Notes: a model not told the origin generated them from the letters alone. 64,000 bases of DNA from Candidatus Fraserbacteria bacterium (GCA_947085185.1 CAMTVK010000021.1:72409-136408), one strand, 5' to 3'. Numbered from the stretch's first letter, positions 51,827 to 63,584 are shown. Program-made: numbers and translations.

Positions 51827-52536
51827 CAGCATTTCCAGTCCTTTCGAACTGGGCTGGACTATGCCTTCATCCCTTGCGGGATGCGGGGCGTGTTAGCGCT
51901 TGCATGAAGCGCTCCTAGTACCCACCCTCCCCACAAAGAAGAGTGGAGTCGGTGGGCCTATGAGTCTCTACAGGGCCGGCCTGAGGTTAGCCCCCTTCCG
52001 ACCCCTCGGCGTTGCCATCGTGTGTTTGGGCACACAAGCAGGCTTCGCCGATGTGAGCCCCGTTGTCACCTAGACATCGCTGCCTAGGGCGACCTTGTGA
52101 GGTTATGGCGAAGAATTCTTTAATAAACTGCTCTCGTTGCTTTAATAGCTCGGCAGAGTATCTGCCGTTGCGGGGTGTAAGAGCTCGATAGCGATATAGC
52201 ACCAGCTCTGCTCGGTGTCGTTTGTAGCTTCGCAAATGAGACGCAACTTGCTTAAGAAGAGCAAGAGCTTGGGCGTTAGATATGGCATACGTATAGCTAG
52301 GCGTATGCTCAGGCTTATAGACGCGCTTCGTTGTAATCCGACCGGCGCCAACCACCTTCTGCACCCACGCCAGCACTGAGTGCTCCGTACTGCTGATCGA
52401 AACCAGCAGATGTCGATGGGCGCCTCGGTACTTACGAGTGAGGGTGATGGTGCCCTCACCGTCAATTAATCCGGCAAGATAAGCGCGTTCAGCTGTGGTC
52501 AGCTCTCTGACACCCTGCACCATAACCTCGATGTTG
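51827..52536 (-). mobile_element. Group I intron in the tmRNA T-loop
   Basis: Exon ends in U and the intron ends in G. IGS GGUCG pairs with CGAU|C through a U.G wobble. P3 CGGGGC/GCCCCG, R element GTAGAGACT, S element GAAGGCATAGTCC, P8 CATCCC-GCAA-GGGATG, P9 with a GAAA loop. Confidence 0.9.
51987..52523 (-). CDS. Single-motif LAGLIDADG homing endonuclease (intron-encoded)
   Basis: AYLAGLIDGEG motif. Lies entirely within the intron. Confidence 0.9.
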   Translation of the reverse strand: MVQGVRELTTAERAYLAGLIDGEGTITLTRKYRGAHRHLLVSISSTEHSVLAWVQKVVGAGRITTKRVYKPEHTPSYTYAISNAQALALLKQVASHLRSYKRHRAELVLYRYRALTPRNGRYSAELLKQREQFIKEFFAITSQGRPRQRCLGDNGAHIGEACLCAQTHDGNAEGSEGG

Positions 52537-57167: not shown

Positions 57168-57194
57168 TTGACGAAAAAAAAAAGCGACTATAAT
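57168..57194 (+). promoter_or_regulatory. Promoter with an A10 tract in its spacer
   Basis: TTGACG-AAAAAAAAAAGCGAC-TATAAT (15-nt spacer). Confidence 0.6.
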
Positions 57195-57259
57195 ATTGTG
57201 CAAGCATTGAGAGGCAACCTTCATCAAGGGCAAACACGGCAAAATGAGGTGAAGCAGCG

Positions 57260-57958: not shown

Positions 57959-58010
57959 TCGTGATCTTCTGGAAAGTGTTGCCAAGCCAACAGTCGAAGT
58001 GTTGTGAAGA

Positions 58011-58109
58011 CGATATACTAACTGTTGCCTGGACGGCAGTCGGGCTCCGCGGGGCGGTGTATGCTGAGCCATCCCAAAACGAGAGGCGCACCGCCTCGAA
58101 AGGGAGACA
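58011..58109 (+). repeat. Structured leader repeat, copy 1
   Basis: GATATACTAA...CTGGACGGCAGTCGGGCTCCGCGGGGCGGTGTATGCTGAGCCATCCCAAAACGAGAGGCGCACCGCCTCGAAAGGGAG. Confidence 0.9.
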
Positions 58110-58280
58110 ATGAAGTGGCGGAAGCTGGTAGCGGTCTGTACGGTCGGAGTGGTGCTGGCGCTGCTGCTGGGTGGGTTGCCCAGTGCGGACCAGATTCATT
58201 CAGCAGTTGTGACTTCTAGCAGTATACACATGGGTGCTCCTGTCAGCTGGCTCGTTTGTGAGCTAGCTGACAGGAGCTAG
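58110..58280 (+). CDS. 56-aa signal-peptide-bearing small ORF or gene stub (MKWRKLVAVCTVGVVLALLLGGLP...)
   Basis: RBS supplied by the repeat. Its 3' end coincides with an 18-bp hairpin at 58236-58277. Confidence 0.45.
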   Translation: MKWRKLVAVCTVGVVLALLLGGLPSADQIHSAVVTSSSIHMGAPVSWLVCELADRS

Positions 58281-58310
58281 TTGTAGAATCAGCTGATCAG
58301 GAGGTGCATT

Positions 58311-59198
58311 ATGTGTAAGCGCATAACATGCTTTGGATTGACGGCATTTTTGCTATTAAGCGGCATAGCGACCGCTCATCCGGCATCACCAGGAGAAGTG
58401 TGGCACAGCGGGTGGACATTGTGGCAATTGGCCGACGAGAATTGGTATTTCCGGCTGACCGTAGGAGCGCTGGCGAACATCTACCCTGAACTGCTCCAAC
58501 CCACAGGCTTCGCACGCCTTACGCTCGGGCTGAGCTGGAGCCCAAACTGGCTGCTAGCGCCCCAAGTGCACGTGACAAGAGCCACCCATGAGATCGGCAT
58601 TGGGCTTGAGAATATCGGAGGTGAACCGCGGTGGGTGCTGGAGCTCACGCCCTTTGTCATCGACTTTGAGATCAATCCTCGCTCATCTGCCCCGGCGCTA
58701 CAGCAGCCGACAGCTCAACTGGATCAGCAAGTCTCACTAGATCTGAAATCATTGGTGCTCGCGCGCTTGGATGACTTACTCAAAGCCATCGAACAGATGG
58801 CCAAAGGCATCCCTACTCTCGATCCAACTGCGTTGCGCGATCCGCTCACCGAGTTCAAGAAGGCCTTTGAAGCGGGCAAGATGAACGATGCCGCCATGCA
58901 GCTCGATACCTTCAGCGTCACGCTGTTGCTCATACAGCGTAACGGGCTTCTGACGAAGTTCCAGGAGACGCATCTGCGAGCCGGGCTGCATCGTTTAGTC
59001 TCGGCGTTCGCCCTGTTTAGAGAGCAAGTCCAACGCCAGACGGTGAAAATCTGCACAGGGCTTTTCGTCAGCGAGGATCAAAAGTCTGAAGAGGTGCTCA
59101 GCCCGCTGTTGACGGAGATACTTAAGAAGCTCACGTTCACCAACACCAAGACGGGGGCCAAGGAGACTTTCACCCTGAAAGAGTCCAAGTGCTTCTGA
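58311..59198 (+). CDS. Secreted hypothetical protein; C-terminal helical domain shared with 61977-62486
   Basis: AGGAGG RBS, signal peptide. Confidence 0.7.
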   Translation: MCKRITCFGLTAFLLLSGIATAHPASPGEVWHSGWTLWQLADENWYFRLTVGALANIYPELLQPTGFARLTLGLSWSPNWLLAPQVHVTRATHEIGIGLENIGGEPRWVLELTPFVIDFEINPRSSAPALQQPTAQLDQQVSLDLKSLVLARLDDLLKAIEQMAKGIPTLDPTALRDPLTEFKKAFEAGKMNDAAMQLDTFSVTLLLIQRNGLLTKFQETHLRAGLHRLVSAFALFREQVQRQTVKICTGLFVSEDQKSEEVLSPLLTEILKKLTFTNTKTGAKETFTLKESKCF

Positions 59199-59253
59199 GG
59201 ACGCTAACGGATCGTGACCGCCGCTCAAGTAGTGGCATCCAAAAGGGGGTATT

Positions 59254-59901
59254 ATGAACAGTCGCAAGGTTCAACTCATATTGGTTGCTCTCACGGCTGC
59301 CGCATTGCCCGTGGGTGCAATAGACATCCCTGCCCAAGCGCAAAGCCCTTTACCCGCGTACTATGCTGCCCAGCTTGCTGGAGGCAGTCTCGCCGCGCTT
59401 GCGGGCGGCTTAGGGGGAACGCTCGTCGGCGGCTTGAGCGGGGCTCTGCTTGGGGTAGCTTTTGAGTTCCTAGAAGCCCCCTTCGCCATCTATCGAGAGA
59501 CTGATCGCCTCTCGCGCGCTGTGGACTGGGCCTTCCTCGGAGCCAAGGCGGGCTTTGGCCTGGGAGCAAGCCTCGGCGCAGCAGCAGGCGTCGTATATAT
59601 TGCTTCGGCCTCTGGCGTGGCAGGTGATCCCCAAGGAGCGATGATCGGTGCCTTCATTGGTGGGATGGTGGGCATGACGATCTTGCTCGATGCGAGTCGC
59701 CCTTTCTTCCAGTGGCGCTTCATACAAACATCTGAAGGGCTGCGCGCCAGAGCCAAGAGGGGCGTTGAGTTCAAGCTCTTGCTCAATCCCGTGACGCTGG
59801 CTGCCTTAGGCGCGACCATCGGGTACAACATGGGAGCTGAGAGAAGCAACGCGAATCAAGCGATTTCCATGCCGCTCATCGTGCTGCAGAGTGTCTTCTA
59901 G
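59254..59901 (+). CDS. Secreted/membrane glycine-zipper protein
   Basis: Signal peptide and several GxxxG helices. Confidence 0.65.
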   Translation: MNSRKVQLILVALTAAALPVGAIDIPAQAQSPLPAYYAAQLAGGSLAALAGGLGGTLVGGLSGALLGVAFEFLEAPFAIYRETDRLSRAVDWAFLGAKAGFGLGASLGAAAGVVYIASASGVAGDPQGAMIGAFIGGMVGMTILLDASRPFFQWRFIQTSEGLRARAKRGVEFKLLLNPVTLAALGATIGYNMGAERSNANQAISMPLIVLQSVF

Positions 59902-59924
59902 TCCCAACTTTTTGAAAAGTGTCG

Positions 59925-60020
59925 CGATATACTAAGTCTGGACGGCAGTCGGGCTCCACGGGGCGGTGTATGCTGAGTTATCCCAAACGAGAGGCACACC
60001 GCCTCGAAAGGAGGATGACG
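59925..60020 (+). repeat. Structured leader repeat, copy 2
   Basis: Near-identical to copy 1, with pairing-compatible substitutions. Confidence 0.9.
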
Positions 60021-60074
60021 ATGATTATCATAATAATAGGTGACGATGTGATAATCATCATCGTGATTATCTAA
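60021..60074 (+). CDS. 17-aa poly-isoleucine peptide MIIIIIGDDVIIIIVII
   Basis: AAAGGAGG RBS 6 nt upstream, at the same position as the start codons after copies 1 and 3. Ile is encoded by mixed ATT/ATC/ATA codons. Confidence 0.55.
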   Translation: MIIIIIGDDVIIIIVII

Positions 60075-60093
60075 AACAAGTTTAGGTTGCTAG

Positions 60094-60136
60094 AACGAAC
60101 AAGGCTATTTATAATGCAAAAATAGCCTTGTTCGTT
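60094..60136. terminator. Perfect 17-bp hairpin (terminator, attenuator or stabiliser)
   Basis: AACGAACAAGGCTATTT-9 nt-AAATAGCCTTGTTCGTT, with only a weak U tract. Confidence 0.6.
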
Positions 60137-60157
60137 ATTAGACTCAAGGAAGGCAGT

Positions 60158-61162
60158 ATGGGTGTAGGGTTACTCGTTCAAAAAGTTTCTAAAGCCTTTA
60201 AGGGGAAATTCGTCCTTCACGATATTAACTTGACTGTGCAACCTGGAGAGGTCGTGCTCCTTAAAGGCCCTAATGGGAGCGGGAAATCCACGCTGGTCTA
60301 CCTGATCTCCGGCGTCTATCTGCTCGATACAGGCGATATCTGGCTAGACGGGATCTCTCTCAAAAAGGAGCCCCGCCGCGCCAAAGCTGCTGTCACAACT
60401 GCTTTTCAGGAGACGTTCTTTGACTCGCTCCTCTCGCCCCTACAGGCACTCTCTCTCCATACCAAGTTCTACGGCGCTCCCTGGAGCAGAAAGCAAATCC
60501 AACAAATCTTAGAAGAGTTTGGCGTTAGCGAACCAACTCGCCCTATCTTCCAATTGTCAGGGGGAACGAAGAAAAAACTCGAGCTGCTTAAGATTCGGTT
60601 GCTCGAGACTCCAGTCTATCTTCTTGATGAGCCCTTTGCCGGGTTGGATGAGTCAAGTCATAAGCAGATCGTAGAGATGATACGCGCTCGTAAGCGCCAG
60701 GGCAGAGCGATCTTGCTCATCAGCCATGAGCTAGAAAGACTCGATTTTGTTGACCGCATCCTATACCTTGAGTCTGGGCGGATCACAGAGAGCGCCAAGG
60801 AGGTTCCCAAGATGCACATTGAAGCTATTATAAGGGGATGGAGAGAGGAGCACCGCACAGCACTTGAGCCTTATCTGGTAGAGGTGCAAAAGTTGGAGCC
60901 GACAGAGGAAGAGATTCAGGAGCTGCTCAAGCCCTTGGGGGTAGATATCTTAAGCAAGCCCATTCGGATCATCCGGGCTGATGGAGCTATCGCTCAGGAG
61001 CTCCTCAAAGGGTTAGGAGGGTCTGTACGCACTATTTCCTCTCATCAGCAAGCTTCAGCGTTGAGAACCAAGCTCAAACTGGCTGGAGAGCTCTCTATCG
61101 CCCAAGCAGCCCAGCTGCTTGAGGAGTGCGGCTTAGAAGTGCTGGAGGTACGACAGGTGTAA
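60158..61162 (+). CDS. ABC exporter ATP-binding protein
   Basis: GPNGSGKST, LSGG, LLDEPFAGLD, ISH. Confidence 0.92.
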   Translation: MGVGLLVQKVSKAFKGKFVLHDINLTVQPGEVVLLKGPNGSGKSTLVYLISGVYLLDTGDIWLDGISLKKEPRRAKAAVTTAFQETFFDSLLSPLQALSLHTKFYGAPWSRKQIQQILEEFGVSEPTRPIFQLSGGTKKKLELLKIRLLETPVYLLDEPFAGLDESSHKQIVEMIRARKRQGRAILLISHELERLDFVDRILYLESGRITESAKEVPKMHIEAIIRGWREEHRTALEPYLVEVQKLEPTEEEIQELLKPLGVDILSKPIRIIRADGAIAQELLKGLGGSVRTISSHQQASALRTKLKLAGELSIAQAAQLLEECGLEVLEVRQV

Positions 61163-61165
61163 GCC

Positions 61166-61903
61166 ATGCAAGCTACGTTGCTGTTATGGTGGGTCTTCCT
61201 CAAAGAAGCTTTTACCCGGTGGGAACTCCTTCTGCCCTTTGCTGTCAATCACCTGCTGGCATTATGGGTCTTCAGCTGGGGATTTCAAAGGATTGCCGGG
61301 GCAGAATACGCCCAAATCTTAGCTATTGGCTGGATCAGCTTTGCCATGGTAACTATTGCTGTCATCGGTAGCATTACCCTGACAATCGATCTGAGCTTGC
61401 AAAAGATTCGTTATTGGCTGAGCTTGCCTGTCTCGCCAGGAGCGATCGTATTGGGAAAGCTCCTCAGCGTTGGCGCTTTAAGCATAGCCGCTTCTTTGTT
61501 CACGTTGGCTCTGGGGCGAGCCCTCTTGCTGCAAATCGAGCCGATTGAAGCCTTGTGGATCTTGCTGGTCCTTGTGCTTCAGGGATTTACGCTCGTCGGT
61601 CTGCTTGCTTCTATCTCTATATTTATACGCGATATCACAAAAGTTGGCGTCATTATCAGCTTGATAGTCGGTGCGCTGCAATATCTCAGCGTCGTCTATT
61701 TCCCTATCGAGATCTTCCCAACGTATGTGAGGGGGCTCATTTATCTTAATCCACTGACTTACGCCGTCAATTTCACAAGAGCGCTCTTGCTCTCAGACCG
61801 GCTCGACTGGCTCTCTTTAGCTATGCTAAGCCTCTTGAGCGTCGGGTGGCTGCTGGTGGGCTGGGCGGTCTTGCAAAGGAAGGTGATCCATCGGGAGCGC
61901 TAA
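61166..61903 (+). CDS. ABC-2 type exporter permease
   Basis: Six TM helices, LPVS...GK, YFP...NPLTYAVN..R. Confidence 0.88.
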   Translation: MQATLLLWWVFLKEAFTRWELLLPFAVNHLLALWVFSWGFQRIAGAEYAQILAIGWISFAMVTIAVIGSITLTIDLSLQKIRYWLSLPVSPGAIVLGKLLSVGALSIAASLFTLALGRALLLQIEPIEALWILLVLVLQGFTLVGLLASISIFIRDITKVGVIISLIVGALQYLSVVYFPIEIFPTYVRGLIYLNPLTYAVNFTRALLLSDRLDWLSLAMLSLLSVGWLLVGWAVLQRKVIHRER

Positions 61904-61976
61904 AATATCACATCTCCCAAAGATGCGGCATCGAAACACCTCAACAGAGAGCAAGGTGAAGAAGGAGGGATTACTT

Positions 61977-62486
61977 ATGATGAATGGCTGGCTGAGGAAA
62001 GTAGCGATTAGCGGTACTCTAGCGCTTATGTTGCTGACAGTTGGAGGTCAAGAGTGGCTGAGAGCGCAAGGTGGACTTGATCTGAAGGCTTTAGTCAACA
62101 CGCGTACTGATGAGCTGATTAAGCTAGCTCAAGACCTCAAGCTTGATATCAGCACCTTAACAGAGTTCAAAAAATCGTTCAATGCTGATCAGGTTGAAGC
62201 AGCGAGCAAGTCCCTCAATGCTTTTCCGGTCATAGTTGTGCTCTTTGCCGACTTGGGGAGGCTAAAAAAACTTGATGAGGCTACTCTCCAAGCGAGTCTT
62301 TACAAACTAATGAGCGCTCTGGAGCTCTTTCTCGAGACTGTCAAAAAGCAAGAGGCTAAGATTTGTGTCGCGCTGTATCTGACGGAGAAGAAGGGAGAGC
62401 GGATCGTCTCACCGTTCATCAATGAAGCCCCTAAGGAGATTGGAGGAACAGTCCCTCTCAAACTCCAAGAACAGCGATGTATTTGA
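61977..62486 (+). CDS. Secreted hypothetical protein, paralogue of the 58311 C-terminal domain
   Basis: AAGGAGG RBS, signal peptide. LDLK.LV, LTEFKK.F.A, KIC and terminal C[IF] are shared. Confidence 0.7.
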   Translation: MMNGWLRKVAISGTLALMLLTVGGQEWLRAQGGLDLKALVNTRTDELIKLAQDLKLDISTLTEFKKSFNADQVEAASKSLNAFPVIVVLFADLGRLKKLDEATLQASLYKLMSALELFLETVKKQEAKICVALYLTEKKGERIVSPFINEAPKEIGGTVPLKLQEQRCI

Positions 62487-62492
62487 GTATCG

Positions 62493-62561
62493 AGCGGCAT
62501 AGCAACCGCTCAGACAACGCCATCAGAACTGAGGCGCGATCTGCATAGCGGGTGGACATTG
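62493..62561 (+). pseudogene. Remnant of a 58311-type gene N-terminus
   Basis: Translates SGIATAQTTPSELRRDLHSGWTL versus SGIATAHPASPGEVWHSGWTL in 58311. Ends exactly at repeat copy 3. Confidence 0.65.
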
Positions 62562-62658
62562 AATACTAACTGTTGCCTGGACGGCAGTCGGGCTCCGCGA
62601 GGCGGTGTATGCTGAGCCATCCCAAACGAGAGGCGCACCGCCCCAAAAGGAGGAGACG
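62561..62658 (+). repeat. Structured leader repeat, copy 3
   Basis: Near-identical to copy 1. Confidence 0.9.
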
Positions 62659-62766
62659 ATGAGAGGGTTAGCGACGGTCGGATTTGTTGCAGTGCTGGTA
62701 GTTGTGCTTGGCGGGTGTGGCTTTTTCACGCGGATCGCCCGTTTTCACAATCCTGAACTCTCCTAG
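62659..62766 (+). pseudogene. 35-aa lipoprotein-signal stub (MRGLATVGFVAVLVVVLGGC...), probably frameshifted or truncated
   Basis: AAGGAGGAG RBS, LGGC lipobox, early stop. An open frame continues to 62908 in another frame. Confidence 0.5.
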
Positions 62767-63014: not shown

Positions 63015-63584
63015 ATGAGGGGAGGACTTTGGCTCCTAAGTGTTCTCTGCGTAGTGTTGCTCATAGCCGTCGGTTGTATTCCGGAGGACAATCTAGGGAC
63101 CATCTCCCTTTGGGTGGAGGTCCCCTCGGAAATACGCTTAGGCGAGCTCGTGCCCTTAAAGCTCAAGGTGAAGAATAACAGCATCTGGCCCGTTACTCTG
63201 GCCCACGGCTACCCACCGCATAACTTCATCGTAATGAAGTCTGACGGCGCGGAGGTCTGGCGTTGGGCAACGGGGCTTTTGGATGTCATCCTCACAACGC
63301 CCCTGTCCCCAGGGGAGGAGTTAGAGTTTACCGCCGAGTGGGATCAACGAAAACTTAAGTGGGATGACCGGAGTGGCTATATCAGAGGTGACCTTGTGCC
63401 GGCAGGCACCTACTGGGTCCAAGGCATCTTGCATGGGAACACATTTGAGAAGGTATATGGGGGTGGTGCAGAACATCTGAAGACCAAGCCCAAGCGATTG
63501 ATCATCAAGCCGTTTGGCTCTGAACCATCTAAGGAAGGCTCCAACAATTCACATCAGACAAAGATGAGGAAAGGAGGGGAGTGA
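63015..63584 (+). CDS. Lipoprotein with BsuPI (intracellular proteinase inhibitor)-like Ig domain
   Basis: AVGC lipobox, LKVKN..PVTL, NFIV..G.EVWRW, LSPGE, WDQ, VPAGTY. Confidence 0.7.
   Translation: MRGGLWLLSVLCVVLLIAVGCIPEDNLGTISLWVEVPSEIRLGELVPLKLKVKNNSIWPVTLAHGYPPHNFIVMKSDGAEVWRWATGLLDVILTTPLSPGEELEFTAEWDQRKLKWDDRSGYIRGDLVPAGTYWVQGILHGNTFEKVYGGGAEHLKTKPKRLIIKPFGSEPSKEGSNNSHQTKMRKGGE

Follow-up and report, generated by a model that had tools for sequence, protein, structure and literature searches.

What kind of element recurs three times, almost unchanged, at positions 58011-58109, 59925-60020 and 62561-62658 of a 64,000-nucleotide stretch of DNA from Candidatus Fraserbacteria bacterium (GCA_947085185.1 CAMTVK010000021.1:72409-136408; hereafter the window, whose coordinates are used throughout), each time ahead of a different short open reading frame (ORF), is the question addressed here. 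A first-pass annotation had seen in these repeats a structured leader, namely either a domesticated end of an IS110-family element or a new cis-regulatory RNA. The repeat is quite probably, instead, a promoter cassette controlled by a regulator of the Crp/Fnr family, with three palindromes, two predicted -10 boxes and a ribosome-binding site, which has been copied whole or trimmed before genes for secreted proteins. As far as the sequence allows one to judge, it is likely to be neither an IS110 end nor an established structured RNA, and to represent a Crp operator array with tandem class II promoters within a variable island. What is observed is an array with a fixed distance from the preceding crp gene, arms that covary, a match between recognition helix and site, a second conserved hexamer, copies with ragged ends and a mosaic crp.

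The positions and the likeness of the copies are as originally described, identity being 93% between copies 1 and 3, 88% between copies 1 and 2 and 91% between copies 2 and 3, and each copy does start with a -10-like hexamer (TATACT at 58014-58019 and 59928-59933, AATACT at 62562-62567) and does end in a Shine-Dalgarno (SD) sequence directly before an ATG (58110, 60021 and 62659), which opens frames of 56, 17 and 35 amino acids (aa), respectively. When the element was searched against the whole 1.7-Mb genome that holds the window (G000), the copies found one another with E values of 1e-27 to 1e-36 and a fourth one emerged on contig C15 (8087-8189); a covariance model of the element returned exactly the same four. 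Contig C15 very likely continues the same locus, since its start equals 59108-59224, the end of the window repeats 58301-58518, read depth doubles across the gene for a 295-aa protein and one contig links 63782 to 58301. Junction-spanning contigs from sequencing runs X1-X3 (X1 perhaps being the source sample, X2 and X3 belonging to the same study) cover both sides of copies 2 and 3.

The size of about 95 nt first assigned to the unit was too small, the full unit beginning 35 bp farther upstream, and it is in this part that the first-pass annotation overlooked palindromes and their tie to the adjacent crp gene. Three 16-bp palindromes of the TGTYG-N6-CRACA-like type follow one another with a 23-bp period (starts at 57977, 58000 and 58023). 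The hairpin that had been drawn at the 5' end of the leader has no left arm in copy 2, and it coincides with the third of these regularly spaced DNA palindromes. Site 1 starts 21 nt from the crp stop codon in 19/19 loci with downstream DNA (9 genome and 10 metagenome loci, with four truncated loci excluded), and it is the sole perfect TGTTG-N6-CAACA in G000, where the array is also the sole triple one. The two arms of the palindromes covary, with 11 two-sided cells in 14 aligned arrays, a result reached in 0/500 shuffles; the 14 are those of the 19 that are left upon exclusion of G007, G012, G013, G016 and the second G001 locus.

The array can also be found from its DNA pattern alone. Matches to the triple pattern occurred in 11 of 184 phylum genomes (control: 0), four of which belong to another family, and a two-site pattern added an array in G007. 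Four of the five new arrays obtained in this way are placed where a more distant Crp gene ends, with secreted proteins encoded downstream, while the fifth (G019) is detached and begins at site 1, the crp gene of that genome sitting at the end of another contig; the helices that go with the five have Gln or Gly at position 181, and their half-sites are mostly TGTC. The array is absent at five loci of another Crp paralogue family.

Alignment to solved CRPs places R193, S194 and L198 of the regulator opposite R180, E181 and R185 of CRP, three residues by which CRP reads its site, 181 and 185 being those for these particular bases (PMC2677863, in excerpt). Ser at the position of CRP-181 pairs with CAACA/AAACA in 10/10 loci, and Ala or Thr with CGACA/GGACA in 9/9; a helix of the type RR/QR-TTVN.VL goes with GGACA in all four cases, as against none of the remaining 15. 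In variability, positions 194 and 198 of the regulator rank high, at the 88th and 97th percentile, respectively.

Provided that both conserved hexamers act as -10 boxes, sites 1 and 3 would be centred at -41.5 from the respective predicted promoters, P1 and P2, which is the class II position (PMC5957442, in excerpt). Of 32 copies, 29 have TA at the offset of the P2 hexamer, 18 of these with the final T and 11 with TATA.G, and the remaining three have [CT]AnnnT shifted one base downstream; the hexamer is retained in the second family, where the hairpin is missing, and in loci deprived of the 3' strand of the stem. The 5' strand of the stem is, from its sequence, likely to be promoter DNA, and this would explain the one-sided conservation of the stem. 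The hairpin is possible only in RNA that starts at P1 or reads through from crp, and no terminator is listed between crp and P1/P2. For 18 of 22 complete copies the SD sequence is predicted to be more open in the shorter of the two transcripts, both at 37 and at 60 C. The SD helix gave no consistent melting between 37 and 70 C of the kind expected of a thermometer.

The main alternative at this point is that the repeat is chiefly a structured leader RNA, be it riboswitch, thermometer or protein-binding motif, that governs translation by means of the anti-SD helix, with the palindromes as small RNA hairpins. The stem columns are less variable than those of the loops (7% versus 16%), seven of the ten long-stem pairs vary on one side only, the SD sequence is predicted to be hidden in the long transcripts of most copies and sites 2 and 3 deviate mostly by G.U, all of which such an RNA could account for; among 23-24 distinct copies, however, two-sided changes do not exceed those of shuffles, with one in the consensus fold (432/500), two in a nested fold (314/500) and none in the pseudoknot fold (500/500), although, at about 80% similarity among the copies, the power of this comparison is low. 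The long stem GGCGGTGT/RCACCGCC of the first-pass annotation does appear in the predicted fold of all three copies, but it exceeds shuffles only in copy 2 (z of -1.5, -3.5 and -0.4 for copies 1-3), and the proposed pseudoknot has 90% of cells paired with no two-sided change, which speaks neither for it nor against it. Furthermore, variants that keep a G.U and variants that make an A.C are balanced (11:11), the downstream genes are of unrelated kinds and no Rfam family was matched, the RT-3 model giving 16.4 bits against a threshold of 40.5. Also, G007 (two loci), L091 and G016 have lost the 3' stem strand and family f3 lacks it, while the array and the P2 hexamer remain. With no covariation above shuffles, no Rfam family and a 3' strand lost where the 5' one is kept, the idea of a new cis-regulatory RNA is not supported, and such a main function seems improbable. 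A search of titles and abstract openings for an Acetothermia RNA motif, or for the regulator, gave nothing on topic.

On the preferred interpretation, that of a Crp-controlled cassette, the regulator produced from the adjacent upstream gene is predicted to bind the palindromes. A dimer on site 3 would activate P2, with a start at about 58072 and a 38-nt leader, and a dimer on site 1 would activate P1, with a start at about 58026, whereas occupancy of sites 2 and 3 would shut P1. The longer RNA, whether from P1 or from crp read-through, would fold the hairpin and mask the SD sequence, so that the cargo would be translated mainly from P2. Judging from their sites, copy 1 is complete and copy 3, with site 3 and P2, may still respond, the sites of copy 2, which carries TGTCG-type halves, having been lost.

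On a tree of residues 30-174 (27 rows, with eight near-identical or truncated rows excluded), the six proteins whose helix end is of the so-called type B, a group defined after a first view of a smaller tree, do not form a clade, five changes being required, at least three of them forced (approximately unbiased test, p 9.6e-7); four type-B C-termini, on the other hand, make up one starred branch in a 19-row tree. Since N-terminal and C-terminal groupings conflict, the helix-coding end, together with the sites where the DNA is at hand, appears to have moved between lineages. G001 has two coexisting helix types and, in addition, a detached copy with type-B sites. Because helix DNA and operators lie within about 200 bp, a single recombination event would shift a matched pair of reader and site, and the approximately 100 bp of common sequence would offer a crossover point at which island alleles could be stacked, deleted or exchanged. 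The simplest interpretation would be homologous recombination within this common stretch. A rearrangement of this type is found in run X5, from another study and a close strain, where a hybrid of copies 1 and 2 skips 1908 bp and gives the order crp, element, poly-Ile peptide, ATP-binding cassette (ABC) exporter. The same order is found in G001, G005, L092, L093 and L094.

The ends of the copies are ragged: the left ends lie variously within crp, in between sites or past site 3, and the right ends extend into shared signal-peptide codons. Detached copies frequently bear a remnant of the 3' end of crp or of its spacer, those with all three sites intact occur in G001, G005, G009, G012, L095 and G019, and four (G001a2, G005b, L095a and G019) start at the left edge of site 1 or a few bases from it. 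A split form of the cassette is seen in G001 (L025, reverse strand 1-1100), where a second crp type is followed by site 1 only, about 800 bp of other genes and, then, the right half of site 3 with the hairpin.

These ends also bear on the possibility that a dedicated cassette-shuffling system, either integron-like or served by a trans-acting site-specific recombinase, uses the unit as its recombination site, with the hairpin or the palindromes as substrate. The recurrence before unrelated genes in a single orientation, the four copies beginning near site 1, the joint of the X5 hybrid and three tyrosine-recombinase matches elsewhere in G000 would fit such a system. A start at site 1 is, however, also expected from selection for an intact promoter, the other ends are scattered as described, no recombinase was seen in any island examined and no attC-type core was recognized by eye, so that this alternative is distinctly improbable; neither a linked integrase nor sharp cassette boundaries, as expected of integron-like arrays, were found in these islands. 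The first-pass view of a portable expression and recombination cassette is borne out as to a unit of promoter, leader and ribosome-binding site that precedes different genes, the hybrid of copies 1 and 2 fitting recombination, but not as to the link with IS110.

That link had come from a resemblance of motifs and from the occurrence of a non-coding structured stretch, with promoter and SD sequence, before an ORF, as in IS110 left ends, which would make the repeat a domesticated or non-autonomous left end encoding a bridge or seek RNA. The DEDD domain (PF01548) is found in 0/14 genus genomes, although several of these are incomplete, while control matches were obtained in 6/14, and PF02371 in 1/14, as a weak match with an unrelated upstream region. 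A pattern scan across GTDB gave 21 matches, four of them genuine and all in this lineage; the others (17 from GTDB and two viral), inspected by eye, have no common flanks and lie mostly inside long ORFs. No similar DNA was found by BLASTn in plasmid or phage collections. Thus, within the genomes searched, no homologue precedes a DEDD recombinase and the idea of an IS110 end fails. Moreover, bridge RNAs have about 177 nt, with one stem at the 5' end and two others that carry internal guide loops, and the elements that encode them are sharply delimited (PMC11208160, in excerpt), whereas the leader here, found in one lineage only and with no recombinase, has about 70 nt and one irregular stem, and its ragged copies lack the fixed ends around a short core that IS110 needs. 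An IS110 origin is, overall, extremely improbable. An origin from HUH transposases was also considered and rejected, none being present in G000.

It could further be argued that only copy 1 matters, that segmental duplications left the other copies as neutral debris and that helix and palindromes agree through linkage without binding. Sites are indeed missing from copies 2-4, truncation affects two cargo ORFs, other genes also recur as fragments and independent helix/site contrasts are few. Nevertheless, detached copies with three intact sites exist, both arms change together and the same architecture occurs in a second family, which makes this explanation very improbable.

Several observations weigh against a Crp-controlled cassette and have to be set beside the evidence for it. 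The helix/site match includes only one independent contrast on well-supported branches, and two to four on all, which puts significance out of reach; the agreement may be one of shared descent, because the loci are kin and the traits tightly linked. The right arm of site 2 is without the G read by Arg180 in 14/14 arrays, and sites 2 and 3 deviate mostly in G.U-compatible ways, as would be expected of an RNA too. The fifth base of the half-site is variable in family f3, where it follows no simple code, and the orthologue in G028 is followed by two sites only, with a 21-bp period. The last T is missing in 11 of the 29 P2 hexamers, and a consensus promoter scan lists neither P1 nor P2, as expected of class II promoters without a -35 element, a result that gives no support. 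Hiding of the SD sequence fails in 4/22 copies, copies 1 and 4 among them, and the X5 hybrid is a single contig of low depth.

In the CooA regulon (PMC545781, in excerpt) a regulator of the CRP/FNR family likewise uses a 16-bp palindrome of the 5-6-5 type, and site 1 of L097 is identical to the CooA consensus TGTCGGCnnGCCGACA; here, however, no coo genes are seen nearby, three tandem sites stand behind the regulator's own 3' end and the site sequence varies among strains. The class II promoters of CRP and FNR (PMC5957442, in excerpt) share the palindrome centred 41.5 bp before the predicted start and the lack of a recognizable -35 element, but the present ones would form a tandem pair, 46 bp apart and with a further site in between, their starts being predicted from the hexamers. 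CprK/RdhK and their dehaloboxes (PMC7062800, in excerpt) provide an example of local Crp/Fnr regulators with a cognate box at -41.5 in the neighbouring cluster, and of effector and DNA-binding domains that can be exchanged in engineered hybrids. In the present case the exchange is apparently natural, occurs between alleles and takes the sites along, while the cargo is secreted proteins and not dehalogenases, and the box has another sequence.

The right operator of phage lambda has three tandem sites about 23 bp apart, of graded quality, over two promoters, and forms allelic blocks of repressor and operator specificity. The array described here differs in the Crp fold of its regulator, in the same direction of its promoters and in its location in a chromosomal island, with no phage genes and no relative among viral contigs. 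The predicted masking resembles, in turn, the protection of IS10 and IS50 transposases from read-through, in which a hairpin forms only in transcripts from upstream of the proper promoter and masks the ribosome-binding site; here there is no transposase, and the masking, which is a prediction, does not hold in every copy.

A supposed mobile RNA thus becomes a testable regulatory unit. The natural series of Crp helix variants, with Ser, Ala, Thr, Gly or Gln at position 181 and each beside its predicted site, tests the CRP recognition code and may provide orthogonal regulator-promoter pairs from likely thermophiles. That regulator specificity and operators move together by recombination is familiar from phages; a title-level search of the literature found no chromosomal Crp case. 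Furthermore, a regulated and fast-changing set of secreted proteins comes into view in a phylum with almost no regulatory biology described.

As to distribution, a DNA search returned 8 of 61 related genomes, namely G000, six of 13 in the genus and one 21-base chance match, and covariance model R1 returned 11 of 151 phylum genomes, of which five gave strong matches, all in this genus, and six weak ones (<30 bits), unrelated on reading. The island in which the copies occur is, in most of the genomes that were read, a mosaic headed by a Crp/Fnr gene; it is usually flanked by serS and a CARDB/zincin gene on one side and by trpS on the other. The cargo consists mostly of signal-peptide or lipoprotein genes without a Pfam family, besides proteinase-inhibitor, ABC exporter and toxin-antitoxin genes. 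The features of the window are collected in table 1.

Table 1. Features in and around the crp-headed island of the window.
Feature	Position	Strand	Remarks
crp promoter	57168..57196	+	TTGACG-17-TAATAT, A10 run in spacer
Crp/Fnr-family regulator, 232 aa	57260..57958	+	N-terminal CxxCxxxC; recognition helix SHRSTVNLE; Pfam cNMP_binding and HTH_Crp_2
Palindrome 1	57977..57992	.	TGTTG-ccaagc-CAACA; predicted operator; centre -41.5 to P1
Palindrome 2	58000..58015	.	TGTTG-tgaaga-CGATA; predicted weaker operator overlapping P1 -10
P1 -10-like hexamer TATACT	58014..58019	+	T, A and last T invariant in 14/14 aligned arrays
Palindrome 3	58023..58038	.	TGTTG-cctgga-CGGCA (5' hairpin of the first-pass annotation); predicted operator; centre -41.5 to P2
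Imperfect hairpin with anti-SD (CUCC/GGAG)	58045..58106	+	Predicted fold; no covariation
P2 -10-like hexamer TATGCT	58060..58065	+	46 bp (two periods) past P1, inside the stem/loop first proposed
56-aa signal-peptide ORF	58110..58280	+	Truncated allele of an 82-95-aa secreted protein with Cys-containing C-terminus
295-aa secreted protein, no family	58311..59198	+	Second copy from 63793, likely joining contig C15
215-aa glycine-rich secreted/membrane protein	59254..59901	+	Last codons resemble crp 3' end
Copy 2	59920..60020	+	Sites 1-2 collapsed to TGTCG|CGATA, site 3 without left arm; -10 hexamers (59928, 59969), hairpin and SD retained
17-aa poly-Ile peptide	60021..60074	+	Conserved at 17-19 aa with synonymous changes, 6 loci
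Strong stem-loop after peptide gene	60094..60136	+	Retained with different sequences in relatives
ABC-2 exporter ATPase and permease	60158..61903	+	Permease in 3/184 phylum genomes
168-aa secreted paralogue of the 295-aa protein's C-terminal domain	61980..62486	+	36% identity, E 8e-26
Copy 3	62562..62658	+	Upstream fusion to remnant of 58348-58421; site 3 (62571-62586), P2 -10 (62608-62613), hairpin and SD retained
35-aa lipoprotein stub	62659..62766	+	Truncated allele of 430-464-aa lipoproteins
Lipoprotein with proteinase-inhibitor (BsuPI) domain	63015..63584	+	Pfam

Of the ORFs behind the copies, regarded at first as tiny, the poly-Ile peptide is conserved at its short length, whereas the 56-aa and 35-aa frames are truncated alleles of longer secreted proteins. 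The poly-Ile peptide (L018, L019, L092, L093, L094 and the window) consists of two Ile runs around a Gly/Asp turn and is followed by a stem-loop and the ABC-2 exporter; as it is kept in six loci with synonymous changes, the ORF is likely a real gene and the peptide under selection. Its product may be an exported hydrophobic hairpin peptide or an Ile-sensing leader, and no modifying enzyme was seen. In both families the first gene behind the cassette encodes a small secreted protein in which a signal peptide and a linker precede a C-terminus that contains Cys and is built of alternating hydrophobic residues (L089:5921-6205, L090:1528-1791, L098:482-727 and L175; no Pfam match in the two scanned). 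A secreted helical domain without family match recurs in the window (58311-59198 and 61980-62486) and in L091, L092, L098 and L175, and the 3' end of its gene recurs as short fragments in several islands; for the 295-aa protein, the protein atlas gave no usable match. The lipoprotein ORF behind copy 4 (L017:110-1500) matches relatives over its first 195 aa and, then, spans reverse-strand toxin-antitoxin remnants.

The regulator reaches no equivalog cut-off of a named CRP/FNR subfamily (CRP, FNR, CooA, NtcA, FixK), the best score being 46.8 bits against cut-offs of 211-400, and the Glu that binds cyclic AMP is replaced, with GVGS in place of GELS. Of the four cysteines that bind the cluster in an Fe-S sensor of the FNR kind, those that could belong to the CxxCxxxC motif are retained in full-length proteins of family f1 and were not seen in f3 orthologues. 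The structure model is usable at the helix-turn-helix end only, the predicted local distance difference test score of the N-domain being under 50, and a fold search with it returned CRP-family chains; no viral relatives of the regulator were found among the viral contigs searched. G000 has 12 Crp-type helix-turn-helix matches in its 1.7 Mb, several with N-terminal Cys motifs, and the crp of L095 (6001-6698) has a frameshift near codon 48.

The A-run in the spacer of the crp promoter (57174-57183) has 8-10 A in 17 homologous promoters, whose spacers measure 15-17 bp. Runs of at least nine A occur 12 times in G000, two others within promoter-like spacers, and phase variation by the run is, because of this recurrence, a mere possibility. 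In L089 a crp-type promoter also stands before an M1 peptidase gene. A riboswitch of the cyclic di-GMP (c-di-GMP)-I class precedes the crp orthologue in 3 of 15 loci scanned (G012, G016 and G019). In the window no Rfam match to it was obtained, and most genus relatives retain only its first half before the start codon, the region corresponding to about 57229-57259 of the window. Positions recorded for this riboswitch are L041:2204-2292, L156:1407-1499, L180:593-675 and L028:1915-1989, and it is also found in the locus of another Crp paralogue of G000.

A broader scenario, to be taken as tentative and rather doubtful, would have a Crp subfamily of this order carry the operator array on its own 3' end, with helix, operators and tandem promoters exchanged as one 250-bp block to provide strains with orthogonal pairs of regulator and promoter. 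The block would be copied before new secreted cargo, with the hairpin silencing read-through, and the setting of crp would fall to the c-di-GMP-I riboswitch in some lineages and, perhaps, to slippage of the A-run elsewhere. The island would then be a diversifying, c-di-GMP-linked surface or biofilm programme, the exported poly-isoleucine peptide included.

Outside the island, the transfer-messenger RNA (tmRNA) gene of the window (52869-51810, minus strand) contains a 710-nt insertion in the T-loop (52536-51827), which follows a T, ends in G and holds a LAGLIDADG ORF (51987-52523). It is absent in G001 and G005, and an insertion from the same place is found in G013. In a survey of group I introns in tmRNA genes, endonuclease genes are reported in 36 of 883, with none longer than 700 bp among those discovered (PMC11915505, in excerpt). 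The insertion fits this known form of group I intron.

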